Source of the DNA: Haliotis rufescens
Taxonomy: Eukaryota
Assembly (NCBI RefSeq): GCF_023055435.1
Contig: NW_025963868.1
Coordinates: forward strand, 11,656,001-11,720,000
Length of the DNA: 64,000 nucleotides
Direction of reading: 5' to 3'
Shown: positions 11,101 through 47,897 of the stretch, piece after piece
Layout: every line of letters starts with the position of its first letter
Position numbering within the stretch: the stretch's first letter is position 1
Position numbers and translations under genes: made by a program
Notes under the pieces: model-generated
What the model was told of the DNA's origin: nothing
Database searches by the model: none
The model's input: the letters and a program-made list of their open reading frames with translations, nothing else

Positions 11101-11503
11101 ACAACGTAGTATTTTGTTCCGCTGCTAACAGTAGTTTCTATTGAGTATATCTAACATATATCTCAATACAAACGAAAAAAAACCGATTGATGTCTTGTGG
11201 CCTTGTATCACAGATCAAATGTATTGATGCAGCTTGCACCCGTGTGTGTAATGTAAAATATGCCTTATGTCACCAATGCTTGATTCTTAAGTTCTAAATT
11301 GTATTTGTGTTTGTGCAGATGTATCACTGGCTGATGTTGACACACCTCAGTACGACACTTTGGCTCACAATGGCAATACAGATCCCTGTTACTCAGAGAT
11401 CAAGAAAGAAACTTCCAGACAGTCCAACATACACACAAACGATGTTTACTACAACACCGTATCCAAAAATGCTGACTACGAAAACCCACCCATGAGAACA
11501 TAG
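8150..11503 (+). CDS. Gene A: single-Ig-domain type I receptor with ITAM-like tail (~263 aa)
   Basis: Exons 8150-8207 (leader MGFLTYLTTLLWIGRIVDT), 8440-8784 (Ig: TLVC..WYMD..VWRC), 9455-9535 (stalk), 10581-10703 (TM), 11319-11503 (tail ...PQYDTLAHNGNTDPCYSEI...VYYNTV..DYENP..*). All introns are GT-AG and phase 1; the total of 792 nt is an open frame. The N gap 9013-9157 lies in intron 2. Confidence 0.85.
9013..9157. other. Assembly gap (N run); second gap at 27173-27328
   Basis: N characters in the sequence. Confidence 1.
10066..10238 (-). mobile_element. tRNA-derived SINE family 1 (gene A intron)
   Basis: Full-length copy: (gagt)n ... gggacaccagaaatggg ... aatcgaaccc ... ctaccccaccg. Confidence 0.85.
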
Positions 11504-16346: not shown

Positions 16347-19300
16347 ATGGACATCGGGATTCGCCTGATTACTCTGCTGTGCATAGGATGGATTGCGTAC
16401 ACACATAACAGTAGGTTTGAATATTAAATAATGCGAAAGGTTGAACCATTTGGATTTCATTGATGTAATTTAATAGTGATTGTAGCAGTTTATATCCGTT
16501 ATATTTCGTATTTGCATGTTACAGCTGGGTCGGCATTGTAAGTACACGAAGAACGACAAAGAATGTCACTGCATGTTTGTGTTCTGATTGCTTCTCATGC
16601 TGGTTGTATGTTGGAATGTTGCAGGTGGTTTCCCTCTGGAACTCACTCAGTTCAAGTCAGGCGATGATGTCACTTTAGTCTGCACCGATGCTAACACAAC
16701 TTTCAACATAGAGTTTACAAAATGGTACATGGATGACGTACGAGTTCTCACGTCAGTGTTTGCAGGGAATGTCTGTCAAAAACACCCACCCAACAGCCCA
16801 GGCGATACTCATGCATATCGTTACGACCTATACACTTCAACGGATGTCAGTGTAAGCTGTGGTAACACCCAACACAACATGACACTAACGACAACTCACT
16901 ACCTCCACGATGGGACTGTGTGGCGGTGTGAGGATCAACGCAATAGAGTCAGTAACAACCTTACTTCAGGTATGATCTTTTTTTGGCCATGAGCTCACAT
17001 TCCTTTACTTACATCTACGTGTTCTTTTGATCTCACACATCGTGTCAGATAGACGCTCCAACCATCTGACCACAGAGGCGATAAAATAAAATTTATTCTT
17101 CTAGAGCGTCGATATTGAGCTGGTAAATGCCACAATTAATTTATATTATTTATGTATGCAGATATTCAAGGTACTCTAGGTAGTTTTGTATATTACATTT
17201 AGAGAAACAATGAGACCTGTTATGCCATTCACATTAATGCTGGTAAAATCATCTTAACAATCGTAGGTCAGATACAATATCAGATAGTTTTAATAATCCT
17301 CTGTATATTATAGTTTGTACTTTTATATGTAAAATGTTCGAACGTCGTTTCACAATCACACTGAGCATAACTGATGTTGGCTCATCTAAAAGATTTTTCA
17401 AACAATAGTATTGTGTAATTCTATGTCCTCTATGATGGGCTAGCAAATTTCATAATTATTTGTTTTTATTATTTGTGTCGGCAGGCTTTGCAGTGACTAC
17501 CAATAACACAAGATCACAACTGACTGATTCAGCAACAACGTTGGCAAAACTTACAACTATCAAGATAACTACTCCCCTGAGCAACGAAAATCAAGGTAGT
17601 TATGTATTAGTCGTCAAAATTACCTTTGGCTACGATGTGTACGATATTTAGAAACAGTCAGGAATGTATAACACAACCGTATACGGACCCATGATCCAAG
17701 ACATACCCCCTTTTTGCATTGAACGGCATGTATTTGAACAGACGGTATTGTGATAAATTTCGGTGTATCAAAGCTCTTGATATTGCGGTTTTACACGATA
17801 TTTCATGGCTGCAGTTTACTCGAATAGGATACTGTCTTAGCTTAGTTACTGTGAATGAATGAACGATTATGAACAACAAAGTAAAATATAATGTTCTCAC
17901 CTCCAGACAAATAGCATGGAAAAAAACATTGATCATAAACCCATTACTGACGACGTGCTGTTTCACGCCTTCGAGTACTCGGGACAAATTGGATTCACTT
18001 GATTCTAGTGTTATTCGGCCATCATCACAATCAACGGATACGGACATACAGACAACTCCAGAATCTAGTAGTTACATGTAATCTCCGTCTCTGCATACCA
18101 TGCTTAAAACCTAGGTTTTGTACAGTATTGAAACAGAACAGGTAGCTCTAATCTGTAATATACATACATAAAAAATCACAGTCCCTTTTCGAAAAGAAAA
18201 CTTCCCAAATCAACCTAAGTCATTTGTGGTGAAACATTATCAAGTTAAAAACTTCAGGTCATAAATCCTTAACAACCCCAGCATATAGATTGATGTCATC
18301 AAATCCATCTGCGTGTATACAGCATGGTCTCTCCTCTCGCTATTATTGTCTCAGATCATTCAATACTTACACTCATTGCTTATGTACACGGACTCATACC
18401 TGAACCTACATAGACTTATACATGGACCAATTTAACGGCCAGTATATAAGCCCAGTATTTGTTTTCTCCTCAAGATAACACCATATGCATTATATTTTTT
18501 AAAGATCAACATCAACTTCATTGACATCACTAACCATGGCCCAGACACCCAGTATATGTTTTATGTTCAAGATGACACCATGTACATTGCTGCTGGGGCA
18601 GGAGGTGGCATCATGATCCTCATCATAATCGTTATCTGTGTATGTGTTGTTAGAAGGAGAAGAACGGTAAACGTCACGCAAGGTAAACTGCACTTCTGCA
18701 GTCGGAACATATTACTATTATTTGGTATCAGATTCCGATTTGATGTAAAGTGATTTGAAGATCAAACCAGAACATTCAGGACAACGTTAAGCATTTCAGA
18801 TGTAAATATTAAAGTTTCATCAAATATAAAAGCTACAGCTCTCATCTGTCAATTCATTTACTTATCCATCCTTATCATAAAATCGCTTATTTGAGCATAC
18901 ATCAACACATATCGCAAGAGTATTAACAACAGAAATATAATAAATTATGCAGTGAACAATGGTATTGGTCGTCATGTCTGTTCACAGCTATCAGCGATGC
19001 AGACAATGGTGCAGAGCTTTCAGAAAACCCAACTTATGTTAGGTGAGTAGAGTGTCAAGTGCTTCCACTGTATGTCACCTTTGAATTCCGTCACGCAACG
19101 CCCGTATGGGTCGTCTTCAGTATAGAGTTATGTTATTTCAATGTGGTCAACTGTATGTCTTTTCTAGCCTTTGCATTGGATTGTGACGGATACGATCTAA
19201 ACCTTGTGTCATTTTTATTGAGTAAGATTCATAAACACATGCTTTAGATATAGTCAGAACGGAAAATGGACTCTGCTTTCGGCACAGATTTCTTACAATT

Positions 19301-21198
19301 ATGGAAATGGTTTTGTTAGTTTTATTTGCATCTCACAAAACGTACTGTTTACAATGTTAATACTCTTTATATTCAGGAACCATTCACTGTGTAATACAAA
19401 CACCTAACCATGTAATATTGGTTTAACGATTTCCTTTATCATAGGAAAACTTTAATCACAAACGATTTAGTCCAGAAAAGTTTGCGTTATATTCACAATG
19501 AAACACGAAACATTATGGAATACTAGACATGTACTAAACTTTAGTTTGTTGTGAGCTTTCCTGAAGGTTATATTGGCCTACACAATATTGTGTGTGATTC
19601 TGTTCTCTCCAAGCTGTGACAGTGAAACAGCGCCTCAGCTTATGTGTGAACGAGTATCTCTGATTGGAGCTTTTACACAAGTCAATGGGATCAATAGTAT
19701 CATCTCAAATGTGATAAACAAACATTATTCATGAAACTTTTGTATGCCACTTTGCTATGATCACATTTACGTGTAGGTTTCTATGTAGTTATGGTTATTA
19801 TTATTTGCAATAATTTATTCCAGTGTTGAAACGATCAATAATTTAAAACAAAAATCCTTTTCAGAAATCAAGATGAAGCAGCTGACAACAAAGAGCTCTT
19901 AACTAGTAAGTCTTCACAGTTGTGGTGTTCTTCACTTCCTCACATATCTGACTACTGTATTTGAGTGGTGATTATAGTTAGAGTGTTGCCTTCTCGATGA
20001 AGCTGAATAATTTCGGGAAGAATTTAGGGTGATTATTATGTTGTTAGTTGTTGGAATATAAACACCATCATTCCATTTCTAACTGCCGCACCAGGCACGA
20101 CAACCGTACACCAGCCTGCTGTAGTTGGTGCTGTCAACGTTGACGATGTGTATCCTGTACCAGACAAAACACCCAAGCACCAGTCGGCTGTACGTAGTGC
20201 TGTCAACGTTGTCGATCTGTATGCTGTACCAGACAAAACACCCAAGCACCAGTCGGCTGTACGTAGTGCTGTCAACGTTGTCGATCTGTATGCTGTACCA
20301 GACAAAACACCCAAGCACCAGTCGGCTGCACGTGGTGTTGTCAACGATGGTGACATGTATGCCGTCCCGGACAAGAGACCCACACACCAGCCAGCTGTTG
20401 GCGGTGCTGTCAACGTTGATGATCTGTATGCCGTACCGGATATGTCAATGAAAACAAAGAACGGAACATGTAAGTATACACGGAAGTGTGACCGGACTAG
20501 GAGTTATAATGAGTCTCCTTATATGTTTGTCGTAAGAGGCTCTGAAAGGGTTGGATGATTTGGCTCGGTTGATTATTCGACTAACGGCATCGGGTGCTCA
20601 GAATCGGTGGCATGGTTCATGCATTGCATCGTATCCCAATTTCGTAGATCGATGCTTATGATGTCAGTCACTGGGTTGACTGGTCCAACTGGTCCCGGTG
20701 ATTTACAGACATCCGTCACAAAGGTGGAACATTACTGGATGCGCGGTTAATCAACAAACAAACAAAAAAAACTTGGTAGTTAATGTGTCATCGTAGCCGA
20801 ACGACGTGGAACGTTTTTCATAACATTAACCGTTGGTTTGCCTGGTCCAGACTCGACTTTTAAAGGACGATTACTGACTGTGGCGCAAAACAACGTACAT
20901 ACAAAATGTCACATCCTTTTAGGGATTTATGACTGACTGACTGAGTGAGTATGGTTCTAAACCGCTTTTAGCAATATTCCATCAATATCACGGCGGGGGA
21001 CACCATAAATGGGCTTCACACATTGTACCCATGTCGGAAATCGAACCTGGGTCTTCGGCGTGACGAGCGAACGCTTTAACCACTGGGATACCGCCCCCTA
21101 GGGATTTATGACAGCAAGACAATGTTGATGTTTGGACTGAATATATATTGTTGGTTGTTGCAGATAATTCTCGGTCCGAAGCCGACAGTGAAATCTAA
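16347..21198 (+). CDS. Gene B: single-Ig-domain type I receptor with NPxY and 5x YxVP-repeat tail (~384 aa)
   Basis: Exons 16347-16410 (leader MDIGIRLITLLCIGWIAYTHN), 16625-16969 (Ig), 17162-17179 and 17485-17595 (stalk), 18572-18682 (TM), 18988-19042 (ENPTYV), 19865-19905, 20095-20469 (69-bp repeats), 21164-21198 (YNSRSEADSEI*). Splice phases are compatible; 1155 nt open frame. Confidence 0.82.
20095..20445 (+). repeat. Coding 69-bp (23-aa) tandem repeat, 5 units (paralogues 38525-38805 with 4 units and 53588-53800 with 3 units)
   Basis: Unit KTPKHQSAVGGAVNVxDLYAVPD. Exon lengths of 375/306/237 nt differ by exact multiples of 69. Confidence 0.92.
20934..21098 (-). mobile_element. SINE family 1 with 14-bp TSD (last intron of gene B)
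   Basis: TSD tagggatttatgac at 20920-20933 and 21099-21112; empty site in paralogues D (~39290) and E (~54285). Confidence 0.9.
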
Positions 21199-23050: not shown

Positions 23051-25030
23051 AAGTCGTTTCGGTAAAATACACGATTTTTACAAATAATGTCATTTTTTCC
23101 ACTTTTTCTCACCGAATACATTGAGTTGTCCTCCGACATATTTAATTCTTAATTTATATTGATTTTGTCAAGTTATCAAAATGGTGAAAACTTTTTAAGT
23201 TGTATACCTTCTTTTGGACACTAGTTCATATCACATATTTGACGAATATTTGTGTTTTTATTTTTTGCACATTGTCCAAACTTTAATATTGTTAAAGCTT
23301 TTTGCAAGGACATGTTATTGTTAGTCTTGGTTGTCATGTTTTTGACATTTATACTTATTTCAGTGCAAAAAATATATATTTTGGATGTTCTCACTCCGGT
23401 CGTATCGCATAGGTCTGATTTTATAACGCCATTGTATATATTTGGCTACATTATGTGTCAGTGTTTTCAGTCGTATCACAAATGTCTAACTAGCGGAAAA
23501 TAGCGATCAGTTAAAATATTTATGAAAACCGAATATGAATATACCAGGAAAGTCGTTACAGAATATTTCAACAAATTTCAATGGGGCAGCTGATTCATTT
23601 ATGGCAGGGAAATACTACAACAGGGATTTGATAGAGTTTCAATGCGGTTTTCCTCCACCGCGTATCTCGGGCAACTCAAATCAATATTATCTTATTCGTG
23701 TATTGTGTAACATTCTGTCGCTTATCAGCAAGTTATATATTTTGAATTAAAAGATTCGTCGCACAAAGTACCTCACCAAAGGCTGATTGTCACTACAACA
23801 GGAACATTCAAATCATGCGAATAGAATATATGTCAGACATAACGGGGTTGAATATAACAAAATGTTGCTTATTATAAAATATATTTGAACTCCATTGGAT
23901 CATGTTAATAACGAACTGATTGTAGTCTCGTATATACATGTACTTAGGTACAAAACAGCATACTCGGAATTCTTTTTGTCGTTTTTACATAAGTATTCTT
24001 GCTGATGATGTTTATGCAAAGTTATAAATGTACTTTATTACTGCATGGTCCCCTGTATCATGTTTACAATGATTTATGTGTGCAGAAATAACACTTATTT
24101 GATTTTCACAATGTATTGTCCTATTGTTCAATCATTTACATTTCCACTCACAGGTTAGTCGCACAGTCGGTTTCATGTTGTCCTACATGTTGGTCAAGTT
24201 TAAGTGTTTTATTTTGACATGTGGATTTTACTTCCTTATCTGCTTTCGGCATGAAAAAAATATGCCTCGCCTGACGAACTGTGTTCTTTTCTCTCTGAAA
24301 CCTAATAATCAATACTTGTGATTATACATACGTGATTTGCCAAACCATCTAAATACGAACGAATTACACATCATAAATATATCAATAAAAGATAGCATTT
24401 GTACGATGAGAACATTAGCTCGAGGAAATATGACTGTACGCTCGGCCTGCAGCAACCCGACAGTACAAACGTTGAATGTTTTGTCTGTTGCATTACACAA
24501 GTCAGAGGGTGGGAAAAGGAAAAGGAAACAGTGCTTGATACCATACTCAAAGTCCCAAGTCACCGGGAACAACACACAACCAGCCAGGTTACGGTCCATC
24601 CGATCTCCTTTTTAATTAGTTTTTATTTATTTTGTGTTTGTTTGTGTGTTGTTTAACGCCGCACTTTATTCCAGCTGTATGATGGCGGTCTGTAAATAAT
24701 TGAGTCTGGACATGACAATCCAGTGATTGACATCATGAGCATCGATTTACGCAATTGGGATACGATGACATACGTTGGAATGACACAGCAAACGTGCAGG
24801 CTCGCTCGCCTGTTTTTTTCCCGCTCGCCTCGGTTCCACAACTTTCATGTCTTCTGGTTTCATTTCTAAACAGCATTTTTCCAAAAGTGTTGAATGTTTG
24901 AATTTGGCGGTAACTGACCATGTCATTTCAAACAGCCGCCTTTTCTCGAACATATTTGTTCCAGTTAGTTACAGTCTGACTGTTGCAGTTCTTGTCGCCT
25001 CTTGCCTTGATTGACAGGTCCGTATTGCAG

Positions 25031-25218
25031 GTGGTCTCCTCCTATCACTCACTCAGTTCCAGTCAGGCGTACATGTCACCTTAGTCTGCAGCACTACTGA
25101 CACCACTATCTACATGGAGTTTACACAAAGGTATATGGATGACGTACGAGTTCTCAACATCACAGGCGATAGTTATGCAAATAGTTACGACCTTTTCACT
25201 TCAACGGATATCAGTGTA
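25031..25218 (+). pseudogene. Truncated Ig-exon remnant of the same receptor family
   Basis: After ttgcag it reads GLLLSLTQFQSGVHVTLVCSTTDTTIYMEFTQRYMDDVRVLNITGDSYANSYDLFTSTDISV then TGA TGA. The core Trp is replaced by Arg, there is an internal deletion, and the F-strand Cys, donor site and leader exon are missing. Confidence 0.85.
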
Positions 25219-25456
25219 TGATGAAATTGCGTTCAAGATTATATCACAGAGTTAGCTGTTGTGTGTGGCTGTTTGTACTGGTCAGGATAAAATAGAATAA
25301 TCCCATCAGAGATACCATGCCACAGTTTTACATGAATACCCCGCATAGGTACATAATAACCCAAGCTCACCAATCCTTGTTCAGCCCCCTTATTACCAAG
25401 CGCCGCGCAGGATCACAACAAGCACAATGTTATATTCTTTTGATATGACGTGTAAT

Positions 25457-25613: not shown

Positions 25614-26271
25614 TGATATAACGTGGACAGGGTTCGAGCCACTGACCTCGGGTTCTCGGGGCAGACGCTCTATCCACGTCCCCACAGAGGCATTTTTTTC
25701 CTGAAAAATAGAAGTTCACGCCCTGACGTTACAACTGGTTATGCAGCGAGCTTATGATTGCCTTCTTAGCATAAATGTCGACAGGTCACCATGAGGAAGG
25801 CTGGTTTGTCACTCCTCGTTGTGTCAAGATCGGATCACGAAACCTGAACGTCATTTCAAGTTCAACCCAAATTGTTTATTTAACCCGGCGATGAGAACTT
25901 ATTTCATCTCGGATATTGTTTATGATATTTAGCTTTATCTGAACAAGAACAAATGCACATTTGCGAGTCAGTGTTGGCGAACACCAACCCTTCAGAACGT
26001 ACGTGTCGAATTTGTCCTTGTTACCCACTTATACAAATATAACAGGTATGTATTCGTGCATACCTAAACCAGGAAAAACAGCTGAATGCTGATTGTAGGA
26101 ATATTTCCTCCTTTATAAGGATATATTTCATATTTGGTGGAGCGCTCGTGTTTGCTGGTGGAGAATGCTGCATGTTGCTCTGTGTGTATGTCATGTGTAG
26201 GGACTTCAGTCGGGTTATTTCAACCAAACCTTCAAGAATGTTGACGAGAGGATGCTTGCTTTAGGAAAAAC

Positions 26272-29200
26272 ATGGACACCTGGATTCATCTGATTACACT
26301 ACTGTGTATAGGATGGATTGTTTACACAAATAACAGTAGGTTTCAATTTCTAATCATGAAGGATAGAACCAATGGGATGTCGTAGGTGTAATTTAATAGT
26401 GATTGTACAACTTTATATCCGATCTGTGTCGTGTGTGCATGTTACAGTTATTTGGGTATTGTAAGTACATGAAGAACGACGAAGAATGTCACTTCATGTT
26501 TGTGTTCTGATTGCTTCTCATGCTGGTTGTATTTTGGAATGTTACAGGTGGTCTCCCTCTAGAACTCACTCAGTTCCAGTCAGGAGGTAATATCACCTTA
26601 GTCTGCAGTTCCATCAACACCACTATCAGCACGTCCTTCAGATATTGGTATATGGATGAGGTGCGAGTTCTCACGTCAGTGTTTGTAGGTCATGATCATG
26701 GTTGTAACAGAAACCCACCCAATAATGATACTGCATATCGTTACGACCTATTCACATCAAATGATGGTAGTGTAAGCTGTGGTGGCAACCAGCACAACAT
26801 GACACTAACTACAACTCAATACATCCAAGCTGGGGCAGTGTGGCGGTGTGATGATCAACGCCATAGAGTCAGTAACAACCTTACGTTGGGTATGATCTTT
26901 TTGTTATGCGCTCATACTCCTTTGTTTACATCAACGTGTCCTTTCTGATCTCATACATCATGCTATGACACATTGTACAAGAACGGATGCAGATGTAACT
27001 GATTCATGAAATATATACCTGGGAACCGTACGTAAATGTTCAAGGACTATGAACACGCCATCTACAAATTAAGAACTTTATAAATCGGTCACCAACAGAT
27101 ACATACGGAATTAGCACTATCGGAGAGTGAGGTGAAATTTGTGACGTCGCGTCCATCATTTCTCCACTTATANNNNNNNNNNNNNNNNNNNNNNNNNNNN
27201 NNNNNNNNNNNNNNNNNNNNNNNNNNNNNNNNNNNNNNNNNNNNNNNNNNNNNNNNNNNNNNNNNNNNNNNNNNNNNNNNNNNNNNNNNNNNNNNNNNNN
27301 NNNNNNNNNNNNNNNNNNNNNNNNNNNNTCAGGACACATGCCTGTTTCAAAGTGATAACTCAGATAGCATGGCGCAGTTTAAATGCATTCCCCATTCAGA
27401 AACAGTAGACTAACTCCGAACAGACAAAACCGTGTATTTCCCCAAGGAGAATACTATGCCTTGTCGTATGACCTGGCCTGGTGTCAAAGCCACTGATCTT
27501 CCCTTCTCAGGATAAACGCTCTAACCGGTTGATCATGGAGGCGGTCAATATAAAATCGCTTGTTCATGTGTATCGATATTAAGCTAGTAAATGTCACAAC
27601 TAATATATATTATTTATGTATGCAGTCATTCCTGGGACTACTGATAAATCAACTACACCACTGACTGATTCAGCAACAACGATCACCACAGACAGCGATA
27701 CTCATGGTAGATTTGTATCAGTTAAACTAACGATGTATTATATATTTAGGGATACATTGTATTGATACCAGTGATGTCATTCACACTAATGCCAGCGAAA
27801 GCCATTTTATCTGTTTTAATAATCCTCTGTATGTCATTAACCTAATATATGTTTCAGCTATCCACAAATTGAGTAACTTTGTATGTAAAATGTTCGAACG
27901 CCCGTTCCTAAACACACTAAAATGAACATAATGTGGCTCGTCTAACGGAATATTCAAACTATAGAAGTGTGTTATTTTATGTCCTCTGTGGTGAGCGAGC
28001 AAATTTCATAATTATCTGTATATATTATTTATGTCGTCAGGCTTTCATGGGACTACTTATAAGAGAAGTTCACAGCTGACAACGTTGGCAAATCTTACAA
28101 CTATCAAGTTAACTTCTGCCCCGAGCAACGATAATCAAGGTAGTTGTGTACTAGTCGTCATACTAACCTTTGTGTACGATATATATGATATTTAGAAACA
28201 TTCATGAATATATAACAATACCTATACTGACCTAGGGCATAGCAAGACATAGCAACAATGTGCACTGAATGTACATTTAAAACAAACAGTACTGTGATAG
28301 CTCTCTAGACATTGCGGTTTTTACATGATATTGTGATACATCAACCCCATTATTTCGGTGCGGCATTTTATTAAACTTCTCATATTGACTTAGCTTTGTC
28401 ATTGTAAACGAATGAAGTATTATAAATAACAGAGTAAGCGATATTGTCGTCAGGCCACGATAAGTGGCACGGAAAAAAACATGGACCATACACCCATTAC
28501 TAACGACGTGCGTATTAACGTCATCGGGTAACCGAAGAAAAGTTGGATCAGCTGAATTCTAATATTAGTTGGCCATGATGGAAATTAAAGGTTACTGATA
28601 TTCAGAAACTTAAGAATGTAGTACTCATATATAATCTCAATCTCTGCTAAGTATGCCTAAAACCTAGTTTTGTACAGTTCTGCGTAAAAGGTTACTCGTA
28701 TCTATCAGGTTACGCGTTACATAACTTCATGTTCGTTATTCAGTTATGGCTTGATGAGACTCATACGTGGTACGAGTTGAAAGCACTAGCCAATTAAAAC
28801 AGTGTTTAATCTTACTCCACTTATTCTAATTTTACTATATTGTGCCTGAGACAAGAACTTTACTGTGCTTTATATGTATCCCATTTCCCTTTCAAAACCG
28901 TCCCAATCAAACTAAATTATATGGTGAAACATTATCAAGTAAATACTAGTAACTTCGTATCATTGCTCCTCATAGACCGAAGTCACCAATTCTATCTGCG
29001 TGTATACAGCATGGACTCTCTTTATGTAAAAGTTATGTTGTCTTAGATTATTCAGTACTTATACTCATTGCTTATATATATACGAACTCATAGATGTACT
29101 TATATAAACTTTTCCATGTGCCAAGTTCAAGGACAGTATACTTACTATCCCAGTATTTGTTTTCTCTTCAAGATGATGCCATGTATATCGCTGCGGGGAC

Positions 29201-31043
29201 AGGTGGAGGAATCTTCATCCTCATTATAATCGTTATCTGTGTATGTGTTGTAAGGACGAGAAGAAAGGGAAACGTCACACAAGGTAAACTACACCTCTTT
29301 GATGACGGTCAGAACAAATTAGAATTATTTGGTATCGGATTCTAATTTGATGTTAAGTGATTTGAAGATGAAACCAGAACATTCATGACAGCGTTATAAA
29401 GCATTCATGCTATATTTCTAGATAATCCGTTTTTCACATTAAAGTTTTCAAAGATCATGGACCAGACGCCCAGTGGCCCAGTATAAGTTTTATGTTCAAG
29501 ATGACACCATGTACATCGCTGCTGGGGCAAGGGTTGGCATCATGATCCTCATCGTAATCGTATCTGTGTAGGTGTTGTGAGGAGACTAAATGTAAACGTC
29601 AAACAAGGTAATCTACACCACTTGTAAGGAGGGTAGCAATATTTTACAATTATATGTATTCAGAAACTGATTTAATATCATGTGATTTGTAGGTCGTACT
29701 TGTACCTTTTGCCGTTACTGATTTAAAAAACGGATTTTAATACATGTGTCATAATATTGTCAATATAAAGTGATTCCACATCTCACCTACATGTCTACCA
29801 TAAATCTTTTTGAAAGCATTATTAGTGCCTTAAATGCTGTGACCCTGATCAATCAGCTTCGAAGCAAGAGCAGTGTGACGATCTTTGAAATCTTGGTAGA
29901 AAGAGCAATATACCTCAAAAGTTGTGAAATGAAGACACCAAGGGCTCTTGCTGATGGAATACTGCTCCACACAAAGTGAACGTTGAGCACTGCAAAGTTG
30001 AAGTCATCCCTATTTTGGGCATTTGCTTCCATGTTTGACAAATTGACCTGAACCTCTGATGATAGATAAGTAACGCTATCTATGGTCACCATCTTTATAA
30101 ACAAGCCTCATGGAACAAGGCATGAAGTTTTCCTTCACGTTTCCCAAATGGTATTGTGGTGTACAAAGTTGAAAAATCAAATGTTTTGACAGAATTGAAG
30201 TTGGTTCTTTTCAGAGTTTGTAAAAAAGTCAAGCAAATCATATATTTTTTTGAGAATCCACATGGTAATAATTCCATTTGTCTCAAATATTTTTTGTTAA
30301 AATATAAAGTTCTTTCTTGATTGTATGAATGATTATGGTTAATCGTAGAGACAGGGATTTTGTGGTACATTTGCTGAACCCAGCAATATATCTCTCTTTG
30401 TACGGATTGTTATAGAGCTTTGGAATCCAGTACAAAAGAGGAATGGATATGTCTTCAGGTTTTACAGTCAAGTCAAAAGTTGATGGTACTGATTCATTGA
30501 TTCAGCAGATTTCATCATCAATTAACATACTGCCCTCACATGTGGCGTTATTTGATATCATTATGTCATTTATACCAAATTCTTTAATCAAACAATTAAT
30601 GTAGTGATGCTTACGCAAAATGGTTATGTTATTTGAGGCCTTGTCAGTGAGAACAATCTAAAACTTTTCAAGAAGGGCAGCCAAACATTGGATGACAGCT
30701 GGTTATGACAGATCATCTCAATACAAATAATAAACAATATTAATGCTGAGGAGCTTTGTATCACAAATAAACTGTTGTGAAGCATCGTGTGTCAGTGTGT
30801 AACGTAAAACATGACTCGTGTCTACAACACTCCTTATTTGTATCTGTGTTTTGTACAGATGTATCACTGGCTGGGGTTGACGCACCTCAATACGACACTT
30901 TGGCTCACAATGGCAATACAGATCCCTGTTACTCCGAGATCAAGAAGGAAGCCTCCAGACACTCCAGCATAAATGCAAACTGTGTTTACTACAACACTGT
31001 GCCCGAGAATGCTGACTACGAAAATCCACAAATGATAACTTAG
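26272..31043 (+). CDS. Gene C: single-Ig-domain type I receptor with D-type ectodomain/TM and A-type ITAM-like tail (~293 aa)
   Basis: Exons 26272-26335 (leader), 26548-26889 (Ig), 27626-27706 and 28041-28139 (stalk), 29173-29283 (TM), 30859-31043 (DVSLAGVDAPQYDTLAHNGNTDPCYSEI...YYNTV..DYENPQMIT*). 882 nt open frame. The N gap 27173-27328 lies in intron 2. Confidence 0.82.
29501..29607 (+). pseudogene. Frameshifted second TM exon (B-type) inside a gene C intron
   Basis: ttatgttcaag|ATGACACCATGTACATCGCTGCTGGGGCAAGGGTTGGCATCATGATCCTC... matches the B TM exon (18572-18682). It is 107 nt with a frameshift and in-frame TAG; the donor caag|gtaatc is retained. Confidence 0.8.
29850..30690 (-). mobile_element. 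Penelope-like retroelement RT remnant in a gene C intron
   Basis: LYWIPKLYNNPYKERYIAG..KCTTKSLS; VKTFDFSTLYTTIP; RDDFNF...SSIPSARALGVFISQLLRY. These resemble Penelope-like RT motifs and are frameshifted. Confidence 0.75.
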
Positions 31044-33190
31044 AAGTGTGAAAACCACTGTTTTAAGTTGTCAGACCAGCAAATATATATACATCCTCCA
31101 GTGTTTGTGGCATTTTCGGCCAATATGTTAAGCTATTATCATAATGACATTACGCCATTGGTATAATAAAAACATTTTGTCACTACTGATGTATCGTCGT
31201 ATAGCAGGATTATTCCTGGGTGTTGCAAAAACAAACACCATGTTTTATGAAAATTGTGCATAGGAGTTACCGCTGTAAAAGGCAAGACATGCTTAACCTG
31301 TTTCGTAACACCTGGTGTCACAACTGATTTTCAGTGATGCATTCATGCGGTTGTCATCATTATTTTGCCTTTCGGCAGTTATTCGACACTAGTTCCATGG
31401 TGTTGACGTTTTAAATTGTATCATAACCTATTTTCATCTAAACATCTGAACAGTTGTTAGGACCTGTATATAGCATACATATGTGATTATTTTAGCTGGG
31501 GTTTACTAGCATCTGTAATGTATATTTCGTGTTTGTGTCACTTCAAAAGTATCTGTACCTTATCCCTTTGGAATCATTAGTTACGCAAACGGTATCCACG
31601 TAATATGTTGTGTAAATATCATGTTCACTGAATCTCTAACAGGAAAGCGTGAATGACTGAAAGTCAATAGTTGAATGTCCTGAATTCACATTATCTATTA
31701 CATTGTGTGACGTACTGGTTCGGCTTTATTTGAGTATCTATTCAATGTTTATTGTCCTCTTCCTGTAGAAATAAAGGCTTGATAGGCTGACAGATTACTG
31801 GCTATGTTTTCAATTAATTCGAGTCTCATGCATGTTCCATCAAGCATTGCAGTATAATACAACTAGATTACTACTTTCACCACAACATGATATATACTAC
31901 GACCTGGAAAAAAACACACATGAAAGTTATATTCAAATTGTGTTTATATAACTCCTACCCACCAGAATGTGTAAGCGAGTATCGACAATTGGACAGTTTT
32001 TTGGTAAGATGCATTTTTGATTACAACACAAGGTACACGGACCTGGAAACTGGGGACATTGATATTGTATGACTATTCTAGATAAGGAAATATGCATATA
32101 TAACTGTGGTTAATAAATTTTAATAAAAAGAAAAGTATTGAATGTTTTTAAATTTAATAATACATCTTACAGTGCATATGCATGGAGACATCCTTGACTT
32201 GAAGGTCGTGATTCACAGTTTGGACGTGCATGTTTAATCCGTGGCAGACAATTTGGATGCTTGCATGCTAGCATGGAATATGATTATCACACACGTGGTT
32301 ATTTCAATGTGAACATCCCAAATGATTGTTTATCTTTCAGGTGCTCAGAAAAAAACACTCTATTCTTATAACAACGCTTATGCAAAGCCTCGGCAAAATG
32401 AAAATTAACATCTACGTGGCCTGGATATGCTGCAAAGAGGAACAGCTTAAAACGAACATTATCTCTTTGAAGAGGTTATCTAGCAGGGCAACACTCATGA
32501 CCTGTCACGGACCAGTCGTACACGTGTGACGTCACGCCGCACAACATCCGGCGTCAAACCATACGCACACTTTTTCACAGCATAAACAAAGACTATAAAA
32601 GGATATGGTATAATTTTCAATTATTTTCCGCAATATTTCTTTCCACAACAGGGTCAAACACTAGGATTAAATTATAAACCTTTCGAAAAGCAGGGATGTG
32701 TGTTAACTTATTGAACATACACGTGACCATCTATTTGTGAATGAGAGCTCGCCCATACGGATCTCAGCGATTTGTATTCATGAATCGGCAGTGTCTAGTA
32801 TGTTCTCATTAACATCACACGAAGAATGGAAACCCCCCACCAACAAAGTGATTACATGATCCAAATACGCCAGGATAGACAATGAAACATTATCCCTTTG
32901 GTATATGTACCGACAACTGCACGCAACCACAAACTGGCAGTAATGCAAGTTGTACATTGTGAAAATATCTAAAGGTATGTATCTATCAATACCTAAACCC
33001 GGAAAAACATCTGCAGGTGAGCGAATGCTGATTGTAGGAATATTTCCTCCTTCATAAGGATGTATTTCACAGATAGCGGAGCTCTAATGTTTGTTCACGA
33101 AGAATGTTGCACGTTGCTCTGTGTGTATTTCACGTGTAGTAACTTATTTCAACCGAATATTGACGAGAGGAAGTTTGATTTAGGAGAAAC

Positions 33191-34182
33191 ATGGACACAA
33201 GGATTCGCCTGATTACTCTGCTGTGTATAGGATGGTTTACGTACACAAATAACAGTAGGTTTGAATTTCTAATCATGCTGTGTATAGGATGGTTTTCGTA
33301 CACAAATAACAGTAGGTTTGAATTTCTAATCACCCGAAGGATGGAAGCATCAGGATGTCGTAGGTGTAATTTAATAGTGATTGTACCACTTTATATCCTA
33401 TCTGTTTCGTGTTTGCATGTTACAGTTATTTGGGTATTGTAAGTACATAAAGAACGACAAAGAATGCCATTGCATGTTTGTGTTCTGATTGCTTCTCATG
33501 CTGGTTGTATCTTGGAATGTTGTAGGTGGTCTCCCTCTAGAACTCACTCAGTTCCAGTCAGGAGGTAATATCACCTTAGTCTGCAGTTCCATCAACACCA
33601 CTATCAACACGTCCTTCAGATATTGGTATATGGATGAGGTGCGAGTTCTCACGTCAGTGTTTGTAGGTCATGATCATGGTTGTAACAGAAACTCACCCAA
33701 TAATGATACTGCATATCGTTACGACCTATTCACATCAAATGATGGTAGTGTAAGCTGTGGTGACAACCAGCACAACATGACACTAACTACAACTCAATAC
33801 ATCCAAGCTGAGACTGTGTGGCGGTGTGAGGATCAACGCAATAGAGTCAGTAACAACCTTACGTTGGGTATGATCTTTTTGTTATGCGCTCATACTCCTT
33901 TGTTTACATCAACGTGTCCTTTCTGATCCCATACATCATGCTATGACACATTGTGCAAGAACGGATGCAGATGTAACTGATTCATGAAATATATACCTGG
34001 GAACCATACGTAAATGTTCAAGGACTATGAACACGCCATCTACAAATTAAGAACTCTATAAATCGGTCACCCAAAGATACATACGGTATTAGCACTATCG
34101 GAGAGTAAGGTGAAATTGTTACGTCGCGTCCATCATTACTCCACTTATATAGCGACGTCCATGTACGTTTGTGTGAGTGTGT

Positions 34183-34233
<51 letters not shown>

Positions 34234-37200
34234 TGTGCGTGTGTTTGTGGTTGCTTGTATTGGTCAGGACACATGCCTGTTTCAAAGTGATACCTCAGAC
34301 AGCGAGCCGCAGTTTTAATGCATTCCCCATTCAGAAACAGTAGACTAACTCCGAACAGACAAAACCGTGTTTTTCCCCAAGGAGAATACTATGCCTCGTC
34401 GTATGTCCTGGCCTGGTGTCAAAGCCACCGATTTCCCCCTCTCAGGACAAACGCTCTAACCGGTTGACCATGGAGGCGGTCAATATAAAATCGCTTGTTC
34501 ATGTGTATCGATATTAAGCTAGTAAATGTCACAAATAATATATATTATTTATGTATGCAGTCATTCCTGGGACTACTGATAAATCAACTACACCACTGAC
34601 TGATTCAGCAACAACGATCACCACAGACAGCGATACTCATGGTAGATTTGTATCAGTTAAACTAATGATGTATTATATATTTAGAGATACATTGTATTGA
34701 TACCAGTTATGTCATTCACACTAATGCCAGCGAAAGCCATTTTATCTGTTTTAATAATCCTCTGTATGCCATTAACCTAATATATGTTTCAGCTATCCAC
34801 AAATTTAGTAACTTTGTAAGTCAAATGTTCGAACGCCCGTTCCTAAACACACTAAATTGAACATGATGTGGCTCGTCTATCGGAATATTCAAACTATAGA
34901 AGTGTGTTATTTTATGTCCCCTGTGGTGAGCGAGCAAATTTCATATTTATCTGTATATATTATTTATGTCGTCAGGCTTTCACAAAACTACTTATAAGAG
35001 AAGTTCACAGCTGACGACGTTGGCAAATCTTACAACTATCAAGATAACTCCTGCCCCGCGCAACGATAATCAAGGTAGGTGTGTACTAGTTGTCATACTA
35101 ACCCTTGGGTAACCCGTGATATTTAGAAACATTCACGAATATATTACAAAACCATATACTGACCCAGGACATAGCAAGACATAGCAACAATGTGCACTGA
35201 ATGTACATTTAAAACAAACAGTACTGTGATAGCTCTCTAGACATTGCGGTTTTTACATGATATTGTGATACATCAACCCCATTATTTCGGTGCGGCATTT
35301 TATTAAACTTCTCATATTGACTTAGCTTTGTCATTGTAAACGAATGAAGTATTATAAATAACAGAGTAAGCGATATTGTCGTCAGGCCACGATAAGTGGC
35401 ACGGAAAAAAACATGGACCATACACCCATTACTAACGACGTGCGTATTAACGTCATCGGGTAACCGAAGAAAAGTTGGATCCACTGAATCCTAATGTTAG
35501 TCGGCCATGATGGCAATTATAGGCTACGGATATAAAGAAACTTTAGAATGTAGTAGTCATATGTGATCTCCATCTCTGCTAAGTATGCCTAAAACCTAGT
35601 TTTGTACAGTTCTACATAAAAGGTTACTCGTATCTATCGGGTTACGCGTTACACACCTTTATGTTCGTTATTCAGTTATGGCCTGATCGATGAGACTCAT
35701 CTTTGTACGAGCTGAAAGCGCTAGCCAATTAAAAGTGTGTTTAATCTTAATCCACTTATTCCAATTTTACTATATTGTGCCTCAGAGTTAGAACTTTACT
35801 GTGCTTTATATATACATTTCCCTTTCGAAAACTTCCCAATCAAACTAAATTGGTGAAATATTATCAACTAAATACCAGTAACTTCGTATCATTGCTTCTC
35901 ATAGACCGACGTCACCAACTTTATCTGCGTGTAAACAGCATGGACTCTCTTCATGTAAAAGTTATGTTGTCTTAGATTTTTCAGTACTTATACTCATTGC
36001 TTATATATGCGAACTCATAAATGTACTTATATAGACTTATCCATGTGCCAAGATCAAGGACAGTATACTTACTTGCCTAGTATTTGTTTTCTCTTCCAGA
36101 TGACACAATGTATATCGCTGCTGGGACAGGTGGAGGAATCGTCATCCTCATTATAATCGTTATCTGTGTATGTGTTGTAAGGACGAGAAGAAAGGGAAAC
36201 GTCACAGAAGGTAAACACTACACCACTTTGATGACGGTCAGAACAAATTACTATTATTTGATATCAGATTATAATTTGATGTTAAGTGATTTGAAGATGA
36301 AACCAGAACATTCATGACAGCGTTATAAAGCATTTCAGATGTAAAGATTAAATGTCAGTTTCATAAAACATAATAATATACAGCTCTCATCTGTCAAATC
36401 ATTTCCTTATCCCTCCTTGTAATAAAATAGCTTTTTTGAATATACATCAACACATATCACAAGAGTAATAAGAACAGAAAAATGATAAATGAACAAAGTT
36501 ATTGGTTGTCATGTCTGTTCACAGCTTTCAGCGATGCAGACAATGATGCAGAGGTCTCAGAAAACCCACTTTATGTTACGTGAGTAGAGTGCCAAGTATT
36601 TCCACTGTATACCACCTTTGAATTTCATCATCACGCAATGCCCGGGACCGCCTCCGTGGTCTAGTGGTAGAGCGTCGCTATGTAAGTGCAATAATCTTGG
36701 ACGCGACGTTAAACCCACTTTCACCTCACCTCACCTCACCTCACCTCACTTCACCTCACCTCACCTCACCTCACATCACATCACATCACCTCACCTCACC
36801 TCACCTCACCTCACCTCACCTCACCTCACATCACCTCACCTCACCTCACCTCACCTCACCTCACCTCACCTCACCTCACCTCACCACAATGCCCGTATGA
36901 GTCGTCATAGGTATATTGTTGTTAAAGGTATCGGAAATTGTTCAATAACCACCAAATAGACAGTTCCCTTCCACTGATTTACCCACCTGAACTAGAAATA
37001 AAGAAGACAAATGGAACCACTTCGTCTGTTTCATATGTAGAACTATGCACAAAGATTCAGAGGGATAAAGCACTAGACTGCATGACAAGTGGAATGACTT
37101 CACCTTTCCAACAGTCAACTTTCCCTTTATGTCAAACAGTATTCCAGTAGGTACAGCTAATGGTGTCTACATTTCACAACTTTTGAAGAACATTCGAGCA

Positions 37201-39412
37201 TGCACTTTCAATCAAGATTTCGAAAAGAGCGCAATACATTCCTTGCTAAGAAGCTGTTTGGTCAAGGTTACAACATTAGAGGAAACATTCCTGGCCTCAG
37301 AAAAGCTTTAAAAAGGTTAACTGTAGACACGTGGGGAACATTGAGGCTTCAGTCCCTATTCAGACTTGTACCACATGTTCCCGTGGGTTTTTTTCATGTG
37401 ATTATTTGACTTGTGTTTGCATGTGTTTTTGACGGGTGCCGCTGATGGGGCGAACACCTGGCATAACCACTATTTAATAGTGATTCATAAACACATGCTC
37501 ATGATATAGTCCGAATCAAACAATCGACTCTGTTTTTCGCGAAGATATGGAAAGGGTTTTGTCGCATTTATGCAGTACATAGTACGTAAATTATTTGTTT
37601 TCATCATAAAACTCTCGAAGATGTGGGTGACCTTGTCGCCTTCATTTAAATGTATTCATTAATATAATTAACACACACAACAACCGTCGCATCATCAACC
37701 CTTATCACGGGTAATTCATCGTTCAAATATTTTCTTCATAATTGTTCTTTTATAATGATAATGCAAGTGTTTGTTTTTTTTAAAAAACGCACATTTTTGT
37801 ATCTGCAGGTAGTTCTAAAATATTATCAAATTTGTATTGTATTAATATGCGTGATAGTTGTTTGTATGTTGTTGGAGGACAATGGACTATAAATAGACAC
37901 ATTAGATCTTGATGCTGCGTAAAGGCGACCACGCTTGTCGTAAGAGGCGACTAACGGGATCGGGTGGTCAGGCTCGCTCATCGAACCCAATTGATCGGAT
38001 CGATGCCGATGATATTAAGAACTGGATTGCCTGGTCCATACTGGATTATTTACAGACTGCCGTCATATAGCTGGGATATTGCTGAGTGTGGCGTTAAACA
38101 ACACACCAACCAACCAGTGACACTGCTGGTAACGCCAATCACCTTTAGGGATACGATGACACAAGTCGACAGATCATTGGTATCGCCTCAAATGTGAAAT
38201 TTTTTTATTATTCATGAAAATGTTGAAACTCATTCCTGCAATTTTTTCCCAGTGTTGAAACGAGCAATAACTTAAAAACAATATGATATTTTTTTTCAGA
38301 TACCAAGTTGAACCTGTTGACAACAAAGTACACTTCAATGGTAAGTCTTTTCTATTGTGGTTTTCTTCACTTCATCTGACTATTGTATTCAAATTGTGAT
38401 TATAGTTTGAGTGTTGCCTTCTACATTAAGCTTAAAAATTTCAGGAAGAATATCTAGGGAGAATAATATGATGTTACTTGTTAAAATATGAACACCATAA
38501 TTATATATTCAACTGCCGTACCAGACAATGCACCCGAACACATACTTGCTCTTGGCGGCGCTGTCGACGTTGGTGATCTGAATGACGTACGAGACAAAAC
38601 ACCCAAGCACCAGTCGGCTGTAGGTGGTGCTATCAACGTTGATGATCTGTATGCCGTCCCGGACAAGACACCCAAACACCAGCTAGCTGTGGGCGGTGCT
38701 GTCAACGATGGTGACAAGTACGCCGTCCCGGACAAGACACCCAAACACCAGCCAGCTGAAGGCGGTGCTGTGAACATTGGTGATCTGTATGCCGTACCGG
38801 ATATGCCAATGAAAACAAAGAACGGAACGTGTAAGTATACACGGAAGTGTGATTGACCGGACAACGGGTTAGAATATGTCTCCTTATCCATGTTTGTCGT
38901 AAGTGGCTCTAAATGGGCCGGGTGCTCTGGCTCGGTGACGTGGTTGATTAATCAACGAACGGCATCGGGTGGTTAGAATCGGCGACTTGGTCCATGCATG
39001 TCATTGGATCCGAATGTTTTAGATGCTCATGAAATCAGTCACTGTGTTGTCTGGTCCATAATCGATGATTTACAGACCCCATCAAAAAGCTGTAATATTC
39101 GCGGTTAAACAGCAAACAGCAAACAAACAAACTTGGTACATAGTGTGTCATCTTTGCCCAACGACGTAGAACATTTACCATAACAGTAACCGTCAGTTTG
39201 TCTAGTCCAGACTCGACTATTTAAAAGATGTCATCGGGAATATTTAACTGAAGCGTAAAACAACTTACCTACAAAATGTAACATCCCTTGAGGGATTTAT
39301 GACAGAAAGAAAATGTTGATGTTTGGATGGAATATGTGTGGATGACATAAACACATTGGTTGTTGCAGATAGTACTTGGTCCGAAGCTGACAATGAGTAC
39401 AGTGAAATCTAA
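33191..39412 (+). CDS. Gene D: single-Ig-domain type I receptor with NPxY, 4 repeat units and NEYSEI tail (~380 aa)
   Basis: Exons 33191-33254 (alternative donor after 33311), 33526-33867 (Ig), 34561-34641, 34976-35074 (stalk), 36100-36210 (TM), 36525-36579 (ENPLYV), 38300-38340, 38525-38830 (repeats), 39369-39412 (YSTWSEADNEYSEI*). 1143 nt open frame. Confidence 0.85.
34170..34225. repeat. (TG)n microsatellite in gene D intron 2
   Basis: Directly visible; the paralogous position in gene C is the N gap. Confidence 0.95.
36645..36886 (+). mobile_element. Short, internally deleted tRNA-head SINE with (CACCT)n tail (paralogue ~51789-51940)
   Basis: ggaccgcctccgtggtctagtggtagagcg head, long (CACCT)n, TSD caatgcccg; empty site in gene B (~19095). 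Confidence 0.7.
36950..37330 (+). mobile_element. Penelope-like RT C-terminal remnant (duplicate ~51995-52380)
   Basis: IYPPELEIKKT..SVSYVEL; DFTFPTVNFPFMSNSIPVGTANGVYISQLLKNIRAC. Confidence 0.7.
37920..38115 (+). mobile_element. SINE-like repeat family 3 (other copies ~6085-6270, 7115-7185 -, 20520-20770, 24630-24775 -, 38890-39130, 47182-47352, 52960-53172, 53880-54126)
   Basis: gtcgtaagaggcgactaacgggatcgggtggtcaggctcgct ... actggattgtctggtccagactcg ... atagctggaatattgctgagtgcggcgttaaacaac(aaac)n recurs many times in the window. Confidence 0.75.
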
Positions 39413-47105: not shown

Positions 47106-47163
47106 ATGGGCTTTCTCGTATACCTGACTACTCTGTTGTTGATAGGACGGATTACGGACACAC
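47106..47163 (+). other. Orphan intact A-type signal-peptide exon upstream of gene E
   Basis: ATG GGC TTT CTC GTA TAC CTG... = MGFLVYLTTLLLIGRITDT with a phase-1 donor c|gtaggt, homologous to 8150-8207. Flanks ~46540-47520 match ~7540-8390, then switch to C/E-type upstream sequence. Confidence 0.75.
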
Positions 47164-47897
47164 GTAGGTTTCCCTATGTCCGGATCGGGTGGTCAGGCTC
47201 GCTGACTTGGTTCATGCATGTCATCGATACAAATTGCATGGATCGATGCTCATGATATTAATCACTGGATTGTCTGGTCCAGACTCGATTTTTTACATAT
47301 AGCTGGAATATTGCTGAGTGCGGCGTCAAACAACAAACCAACCAATCAACCAACATTATACAAAGTATTGAAATATCTATATACGTATAGATATGGTGTA
47401 TGTCGTGTAATTGTATCGCGATCGAAGCATTGAAAAGTACTCCTTTACCACTTTTGTTTGTGCACGTCGTGGGAATTCCAACATGACAGGTGTTGAAGAG
47501 TGACAAAGTACGAAAATCACGACTTATTTCATCTGGGATATTGTTTATGATATTAAGCTCTATCTGAACAAGAACAAATGCACATTTGCGAGTCAGTTTT
47601 GGCGAACACCAAACCCTTCAGAACGTACATGTCGAATTTGTCCTTGTTACCCACTTATACAAATATAACAGGTATGTTTTCGTGAATACCTAAACCAGGA
47701 AAAACAGCTGAATGCTGATTGTAGGAATATTTCCTCCTTTATAAGGATGTATTTCATATTTGGTGGAACGCTCGTGTTTGCTCGCGGAGAATGATGCAAG
47801 TTGCTTTGTGGGTATGTCATGTGTAGTAACTTCCGTCGGGTTATTTCAACCAAACCTGAAAGAATGTTGACGAGAGCATGTTTGATTTAGGAGAAAC

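Follow-up and report, generated by a model that had tools for sequence, protein, structure and literature searches.

Gene conversion maintains matching ectodomains on unrelated tails in neighbouring immunoglobulin-type receptor genes of Haliotis rufescens

Introduction

In the SIGLEC5/SIGLEC14 pair, as described in passages of PMC4042635, adjacent genes combine 5′ parts homogenised by partial gene conversion with different signalling ends. A comparable arrangement is reported here for the abalone Haliotis rufescens, in a window of 64,000 nucleotides (nt) (C90:11656001-11720000 of a 1.33-Gb genome) that holds five genes, A to E, all on the + strand, of an immunoglobulin (Ig)-type receptor family. 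The subject is gene C, in which Ig, stalk and transmembrane (TM) exons like those of its neighbour D are joined to a tail of the class of gene A, and in which conversion maintains the match with D. The abalone genes have no sequence kinship with the Siglecs and encode one V domain on a mucin-like stalk, with no C2 domains; the Siglec plan is a V-set domain followed by C2-set domains, with a sialic-acid-binding arginine. Unlike SIGLEC14, C carries tyrosine motifs of its own in place of DAP12, and unlike SIGLEC5, D has no canonical ITIM (immunoreceptor tyrosine-based inhibitory motif).

The closest build to that of C is found in CD300A/CD300C and PILR, with a single IgV domain, a stalk and a TM segment. 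These are described in passages of PMC12447643 and PMC2211832 as paired opposing forms, but they are vertebrate and differ in signalling through ITIMs and adaptors. In Xenopus and mammalian CEACAM pairs (passages of PMC5112662), the V-type N domain is likewise adjusted by conversion between genes with unlike tails, and tails resembling the activation motif (ITAM) also conserve Grb2-type YxN motifs. Conversion there is confined to the exon and the partner carries an ITIM or switch motif (ITSM), whereas the abalone tract extends over 2.1 kb between head-to-tail genes on one strand, and the partner carries NPxY and YxxP repeats. The 'merohomogenization' of KLRC, KLRI, KLRB, Ly49 and PIR (passages of PMC3210942) is similar in that ligand-binding parts, mainly, were homogenised after speciation and unlike tails conserved; those systems are mammalian with ligands and signals known, whereas the abalone cluster is known from sequence alone. 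CD200R1, in passages of PMC7915401, resembles D in having NPxY without an ITIM but has two Ig domains and no YAVP repeats, the likeness being one of a single motif.

Clustered or single Ig receptors with ITAM/ITIM-like tails are also described for invertebrates, in parts of reports on Hydractinia Alr (10.1101/2022.03.04.482883), Botryllus FcoR (PMC12065747) and oyster CgIgR (PMC6994640). All three have other domain builds, and CgIgR provides a case of ITAM-Syk signalling in a mollusc. Neighbour-wise ectodomain conversion between tail classes is not described in the passages concerned, and the term 'gene conversion' is absent from the Botryllus review (PMC12065747) and used once in the Alr report, outside those passages. 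A search of titles and abstract starts, with subscription journals largely uncovered, found no literature on the C/D family or on such conversion in a mollusc.

Results

Conversion between genes C and D

Genes of this family encode a leader, a single Ig exon, one or two Ser/Thr-rich stalk exons (S1 and S2), a TM exon and then a tail. Gene C is intact and encodes a protein of 293 amino acids (aa). Its leader and single V-type Ig domain are followed by a stalk from two exons, in which Ser or Thr makes up 24 of 60 residues, then by the TM segment and a one-exon tail of the A class. Our model is identical letter for letter to database protein P0001, annotated (by annotation only) as an uncharacterised H. 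rufescens protein. On expression the RNA data point neither way, with no RNA run listed for 27400-32000 and no contig over 26000-27160 in one putative RNA run. A genome search with the C tail and Ig exons located a third A-type tail and two extra Ig exons, those of genes F and G, just past the right window edge. The first-pass annotation had counted five paralogues, which is right within the window; taken as a whole, the cluster holds seven genes, A to G in alphabetical order, all of them intact, every model having open frames and AG/GT splice borders. The pairs C-D and F-G derive from duplication of one unit, with tails and flanks 92-96% alike.

The partner of C changes along the gene. Inside a tract at 26540-28700, 24 of 31 informative sites join neighbours (CD|FG), 6 are CG|DF and 1 is CF|DG; outside it (26056-26539 and 28701-29410), all 39 sites are CF|DG and neighbours are joined at 0/39, so that the ectodomain is homogenised and the rest follows descent. 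The outside counts exclude 41 sites at 25972-26043, where D and G are unaligned, and a masked microsatellite region, and the alignments exclude an 8-kb insertion in G and a short interspersed element. In a runs test, the 64 sites of the two main patterns fell into 5 runs, and equal clumping was seen in 0/100000 permutations. This test was used instead of a Fisher test, the edges of which were picked post hoc; a longest-run test (C-D 46/530 sites, F-G 33; each 0/10000 shuffles) was inflated by an unalignable promoter stretch and is not relied on. Trees of successive segments were incongruent, the partner of C switching from F to D and back to F: from promoter to intron 1, (C,F) was supported at 84 and (D,G) at 99; in the tract, (C,D) at 93 and (F,G) at 57; and from intron 4b to TM, (C,F) at 95. 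The proposal that recombination maintains a D-like ectodomain in C is thereby supported, with a conversion tract over the ectodomain exons. C and D are linked genes with near-identical predicted ligand-binding ectodomains (Ig 94% at the aa level) and unrelated tails.

With E as outgroup at the 24 CD|FG sites, E sided with F and G at 11 (CD derived) and with C and D at 9 (FG derived), the other 4 giving no polarity. Because both pairs carry shared derived states at these sites, both C-D and F-G would have been converted after the duplication, independently. The nearest Ig to that of F is the Ig of G by a small margin (95.0 vs 94.2 and 93.6). A and B form a third pair, in which the Ig exons are 91.6% alike at the nt level vs 50-73% for promoter, leader and TM, with unlike tails; the likeness hardly reaches past the Ig exon and ~70 nt of flank.

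Gene C and its junction

Self-BLAST aligned C 27329-29405 with D at 93.3%, C 25897-28797 with E at 88% in two blocks, and C 30715-31917 with A 11160-12372 at 68.2%. In a more sensitive search the D likeness of C stopped at 29405 and the A likeness spanned 30708-31950, the latter bearing out the match with A first noticed from ~30700 to ~31930; the non-coding parts of this block were 75-76% identical to A, ungapped. The claim that C is D-type from leader to TM, up to ~29400, held for the Ig, stalks and TM but not for the leader, and the upstream region is not D-type either (Table 1); the close match starts at the Ig exon, although the proximal promoters of C and D are 87% alike. The C tail could not be aligned with those of B and D (local scores 27 and 27 vs shuffle maxima 38 and 45). 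Deep homology of the A-type tail or its intron with the B/D tail regions was rejected, the scores lying inside the shuffle range.

The junction is real. Gene F repeats its arrangement (92.3% over 6058 bp), and the proteins P0002, P0004 and P0006 of H. cracherodii join D-type stalks and TM to the C tail class. Because of this shared union of head and tail, the junction predates both the C/F duplication and the split of the species from H. cracherodii. Sequencing runs labelled as organisms A, B and C all have contigs that bridge a part of the switch, at 29308-29746 (X2), 29664-29906 (X6) and 30656-30889 (X8). One contig is identical to C over 26580-26693, a stretch with one site that separates C from D and another that separates C from F/G. 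No contig among the short-read contigs examined spans the whole junction, as expected across repeats. The mosaic structure proposed for C was thus confirmed.

A dead TM exon lies at the switch, as first noticed, and belongs to the B/D lineage and not to A: identity was 62% to A, 74-76% to the live exons of C, D, E and G, and 80% to B. The lean to B (13 vs 8 sites, bootstrap 63) was not significant (p 0.38). Its copies in C and F each carry a single frameshift, and read in B's frame neither contains an in-frame stop; because the frameshifts sit at different places, the exon may have died separately in C and F. TM-type intron likeness continues past the exon to 29708 (about 100 nt). Gene B shows the mirror state, with a fragment of the first TM exon followed by a live second one. 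At position 29560, contigs of all four runs contain an extra T (whole depth in X6), a base absent from C. Some copies, or some species, may carry this exon in frame.

The repeat that fills most of the switch is of high copy number: the stretch 29740-30020 gave 1897 candidates and 40 scored matches genome-wide, with depth far above that of unique parts. Its remnant was seen at first reading as Penelope-like. The high copy number stood, and the name, which we take from reverse-transcriptase-like motifs recognised in a six-frame translation, drew no backing from Pfam, where two genomic copies in 3 frames gave no match except one unrelated weak hit; no endonuclease was seen in them. Penelope-like elements carry a Penelope-type reverse transcriptase and a GIY-YIG endonuclease. 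Crossover mediated by this repeat found no support, as D, E and G carry the same repeat family in another intron and in the opposite orientation, and the A intron carries none.

Tails and predicted signalling

The Ig model built from 35 sequences had a predicted local distance difference test score (pLDDT) of 87, and its best folds were antibody V domains (TM-score about 0.6); a first model from 8 sequences (pLDDT 54) was not used. The V-type hallmarks C19, W33 and C100 were invariant or nearly so in the 35 sequences. Pfam returned no match for the C Ig or C tail and, across the 35 sequences, Ig_2 in 7 and V-set in 4.

There are two mutually unalignable tail classes. In A, C and F the tail is one exon of 61 aa with YDTL-x9-YSEI, YYNT and YENP, and in B, D, E and G it is spread over four exons with NPxY and two to five YxxP motifs (mostly YAVP, from a 69-bp repeat), ending in NEYSEI/V in D, E and G. 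The D-type protein P0005 of H. cracherodii ends in SEYSEI, a canonical ITIM match. The ratio of nonsynonymous to synonymous substitution (dN/dS) between the A and C tails was 0.29. The four Tyr motifs of the C tail are kept at 57% identity (H. rubra P0011) and, with YSTM as the first, at 36%; all are kept in H. cracherodii and H. rubra relatives. The ITAM pattern arose in 0.6-1.0% of 100000 shuffles of the C tail. No charged TM residue is present in C; among the genes only F carries an Arg, at the outer TM edge (L014:6889-7000, GTGRG for GTGGG), a single substitution that may be chance. Vertebrate activating receptors often have an Arg at the outer TM edge.

By the known preferences of SH2 and PTB domains, a YxxL/YxxI pair is suited to a tandem-SH2 kinase, YxN to Grb2, and YAVP repeats would be Crk/Nck/RasGAP-type sites. 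The phosphorylated C tail would recruit a Syk/Shark-type kinase through YDTL-x9-YSEI, leading to activation, and Grb2 through YYNT and YENP. The D tail would dampen or redirect the signal through PTB and SH2 adaptors (at NPLY, the YAVP repeats and the terminal YSEI), closer to CD200R than to an ITIM receptor. Precedents are found in passages on the oyster CgIgR, an ITAM-bearing Ig receptor that recruits Syk (PMC6994640), on ITAM-like Xenopus Ceacams, the YxN sites of which are noted as Grb2-binding (PMC5112662), and on CD200R1, an ITIM-less inhibitory receptor whose NPxY recruits the PTB adaptor Dok and RasGAP (PMC7915401). The genome encodes SHP2-like and Csk-like SH2 domains. Opposite signalling, with C as the activating counterpart of D first proposed, is predicted and plausible, and by analogy the C/D family would have an immune role.

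Other species and the origin of gene C

Protein P0002 of H. cracherodii has a C-type tail 90% identical to that of C (bootstrap 82) and an Ig 73% identical to C and 82% to E, and the Ig of P0005 is 92% identical to C and 93% to D; here and for H. rubra, the data are database protein models from limited searches, with orthology judged by tail alone. Because the Ig of P0002 is unlike C while that of P0005 is like both C and D, the most economical view is that C acquired the Ig that D had retained. D is therefore the likely donor, and copying into C would postdate the divergence from H. cracherodii.

That recombination generated C, as also suggested, was not demonstrated. H. rubra P0011, with a tail 57% identical to C and placed as outgroup to A and C (80%), already joins the C-class tail to an S2-like, B/C-like stalk and TM (TM 21/36 to C vs 16/36 to A). 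For this reason A rather than C may be the odd gene, and repeated overwriting of an old C layout is favoured. A single unequal crossover that would have yielded the orphan A-like head and the C tail as halves of one gene was rejected because the ages disagree (88-89% vs 75-76% to A).

Gene E and the rest of the cluster

Gene E has a promoter of the C/F type (88-91% vs 63% to D/G), and its upstream region copies that of F. At CF|DG sites (in C coordinates), E is C/F-type at 11/13 promoter sites and at 28767-28777 and D/G-type at 6/7 from 28981; its leader and intron 1 are mixed between the two types. The best interpretation of these patterns makes E a third unit, with a C-type gene fused to a D-type gene; it would have arisen by crossover between the homogenised heads of a pair. 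In the SIGLEC14/5 fusion allele (passages of PMC4042635), one gene's coding end likewise stands under the other's promoter, and E would be its counterpart; unlike that allele, E is an extra tandem unit in this assembly and keeps a C-type Ig. Among the local Ig domains, that of E comes closest to the Ig of the C orthologue in H. cracherodii, and E may preserve the state of C before conversion.

Orphan A-like promoter and leader pieces and broken A/B-type Ig pieces (46549-47529; 63864-64000 continuing into L014; 24976-25248) head each unit of the triplication; the A-like pieces, at 88-89% to A, are younger than the split of the A and C tails. In gene A, the TM exon at 10581-10703 is open and has splice sites, with divergent sequence. 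The database model of A stops before this exon and the H. cracherodii relative of A skips the TM; its product could be a soluble form. Gene D contains a 57-bp tandem duplication at 33219-33332, which covers the leader exon's end together with the donor site, so that either of two donors could be used. In intron 4 of G (L015:3390-10000 to L016:1500), an insertion of ~8 kb with inverted-repeat ends separates the stalk and TM exons and includes a stretch resembling a transposase, Tc1/mariner-like on visual inspection. An inverted, more distant family member (Ig 41-47% aa) with stalks and TM lies about 7-20 kb to the left of the window (L020, L019); its tail has about twelve 69-bp repeats with Tyr replaced by Phe (LFAVP), a possible non-phosphorylatable decoy. 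A second Ig exon there has the opposite orientation.

Table 1. Features of gene C and its cluster (window coordinates).
Feature	Position	Strand	Description
C promoter/upstream	25614..26271	+	94-95% to F, 88% to E, 78% to B, 62% to D, 51% to A; neither D-type nor A-type
C leader exon	26272..26335	+	phase 1; 93.8% to F, 84.4% to D; 6/6 informative sites join C with F
Conversion tract	26540..28700	+	2.1 kb; Ig exon, S1 and S2 with introns 2 and 3, plus intron 4 up to its middle; both edges uncertain (26493-26651, 28650-28766)
C Ig exon	26548..26889	+	V-type fold; nt identity 97.7% to D, 93.6% to F, 80.4% to A
C stalk exon S1	27626..27706	+	Ser/Thr-rich; 100% to D, 81.5% to A
C stalk exon S2	28041..28139	+	91.9% to D; no counterpart found in A
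C live TM exon	29173..29283	+	94.6% to D, 69.4% to A; membrane span without charged residue
Dead second TM exon	29501..29607	+	107 nt, AG/GT intact, one frameshift; B/D lineage
High-copy retroelement pieces	29742..30700	-	decayed; fill most of the switch
A-type block	30708..31950	+	intron end, tail exon, 3′ untranslated region, flank; 68% over 1307 columns (BLAST)
C tail exon	30859..31043	+	61 aa; YDTL-x9-YSEI, YYNT, YENP; 86.5% to A
Gene A	8150..11503	+	263 aa in our model; C tail class; promoter, leader, TM divergent; without S2
Gene B	16347..21198	+	384 aa; D tail class; Ig 91.6% to neighbour A; first-TM-exon fragment precedes live TM
Broken A/B-type Ig fragment	24976..25248	+	upstream of C
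Gene D	33191..39412	+	380 aa; partner of C; tail NPLY, three YAVP, terminal NEYSEI
Orphan A-like promoter, leader, intron 1	46549..47529	+	upstream of E, likewise upstream of F; 88-89% to A
Gene E	47898..54406	+	355 aa; C/F-type promoter and head, D-type tail; collapsed pair
Gene F	65919-70748 (window numbering continued)		second copy of the C mosaic; partner G
Gene G	72936-87218 (window numbering continued)		partner of F; D tail class

The wider family

A profile search returned 38 proteins. In a tree of 53 Ig domains, two separate clades with good support each mixed the two tail classes, which were assigned from motif patterns. Of 20 relatives looked up by name, 19 were Haliotis proteins, mostly 'uncharacterized'. 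The second clade maps to G000:C157:7097900-7242400 (L025-L048; 7.10-7.24 Mb), where tail matches nearly alternate between a YYNT/YENP class (YSTM..YTEL/YYNT/YENP, seven matches) and a YAKV/YAKP class (DVYAKV, DLYAKP, five matches). The DVYAKVNK of the latter resembles, we presume, the Csk-binding EPIYA-A site of CagA. The first Ig exons (Ig1) of this cluster are 77-94% alike irrespective of tail class. Whole-genome searches with two of its proteins gave 106 and 99 matches, mostly Ig exons. Further Ig exons of the C/D family, dozens of them and largely unannotated, lie in several clusters (C90 7.5-23.4 Mb, C602, C268, C576).

Discussion

The data establish that conversion keeps the ectodomain of C matched to that of D. 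The account that we find somewhat better than even is that C keeps its own ITAM-like tail while its outer-domain exons were overwritten, likely by conversion from D, so that C and D form a predicted pair with the same ligand and different signalling.

Several observations weigh against this account. The tract is mostly intron and stalk, as under neutral conversion; 6 of its 31 sites join C with G, and the F-G support of 57 is weak. Positive selection on the Ig was not detected, dN/dS being >1 for C-F and D-F but not significantly so (p 0.18 and 0.27). The comparison with H. cracherodii and H. rubra depends on the limited database models described above, and in it two H. cracherodii C-type Ig domains are only 74% and 78% identical to the single D-type found, with which one C-type protein shares an identical S2. 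Because S2 was identical and the Ig unmatched, the converted part is not always the Ig. On C157, neighbours are not mutually closest in Ig1 (Ig exons being assigned to tails by order only), and the ITAM-like tails start with YSTM. Matching of the Ig was seen in three pairs of this cluster but neither between the H. cracherodii proteins compared nor between neighbours on C157. Because Ig1 is alike across classes there without neighbours being closest, shuffling of heads across tail classes is general and strict one-to-one matching is not. The predicted signalling also has points against it: the spacing of 9 in YxxL-x9-YxxI is inside the 6-9 of Huene et al. but outside the 6-8 given in the passage of PMC5112662; the canonical ITIM [ILVS]xYxx[ILV] had 0 matches in the B, D, E and G tails, while C's own tail matches its consensus (VYYNTV); and neither Syk nor Shark was among the SH2 matches identified (3 of 47 identified).

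Many of these points would be expected if the mosaic and the conversion were real but a by-product of the tandem array, in which alignable heads exchange and unrelated tails cannot, without selection for a match of C and D; shuffling may then simply diversify the Ig pool over two tail types. The inclusion of introns and stalks in the tract, the sharing of S2 but not Ig in H. cracherodii, the missing Ig1 pairing on C157 and the CG|DF sites, some of which reflect exchange beyond neighbours, all favour such a by-product. It does not readily account for the three two-class pairs (A-B, C-D and F-G), in 3/3 of which the Ig sides with the neighbour and the promoter and leader retain a separate ancestry: the leader and proximal promoter of C and D are alignable yet unconverted, the likeness of A and B hardly extends beyond the Ig exon, and even F is nearest to G, albeit by little. 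We therefore regard this explanation as a real but lesser possibility.

Improbable in our view is that C was made once, by an unequal crossover joining a B/D-type head-to-TM part to an A-type tail, the dead TM marking an older B-type head and later conversion refreshing the product. C is indeed B/D-type in its promoter, in S2, in intron 4 and in both TM exons, and A-type in its tail block, the non-coding distances of C to B (78%) and to A (75-76%) are alike, the synonymous divergence (dS) between A and C is larger in the TM (0.99) than in the tail (0.36), and the dead TM leans to B. That lean is not significant, however; the outgroup tail of H. rubra P0011 already stands on an S2-like stalk and C-like TM, A may be a decayed form given that its database models lack the TM, and the crossover point is unmarked by shared sequence, the A intron having no repeat. 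An artefact of assembly or polishing is scarcely credible as the source of the junction or of the C-D likeness. It could be argued from the lack of a single contig over the whole junction and from the chance that the best run is the source sample, but the junction copy in F has diverged by 6-8%, C and D hold private changes inside the tract, the H. cracherodii proteins have the same union, and contigs bridge pieces of the switch or match C letter for letter. Conversion of an existing C by D thus remains the account that we prefer.

A broader proposal is that abalones independently evolved vertebrate-style paired receptors, with a large V-Ig family (about 100 Ig-exon matches), an ITAM-like/Grb2 class alternating with an ITIM-less NPxY/YxxP class, directional conversion from inhibitory to activating genes, and SIGLEC14/5-like fusions. 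We hold this as tentative and rather doubtful. Genomically the cluster resembles vertebrate paired receptors, but its predicted tails depart from them in the ITIM.

Conversion-matched paired receptors are a signature of pathogens exploiting inhibitory receptors, described mainly in vertebrates. If the proposal is true, the innate immunity of invertebrates would be shaped convergently by the same pressure, using another kind of inhibitory tail, and the C/D system would offer a test case for inhibition without an ITIM. If conversion here is a by-product of the array, the locus would still be a clean and dated example of both conversion and tail shuffling, in a family hitherto unstudied. C/D, F/G, E and the C157 array are candidates for the mapping of disease resistance in farmed and endangered abalones.

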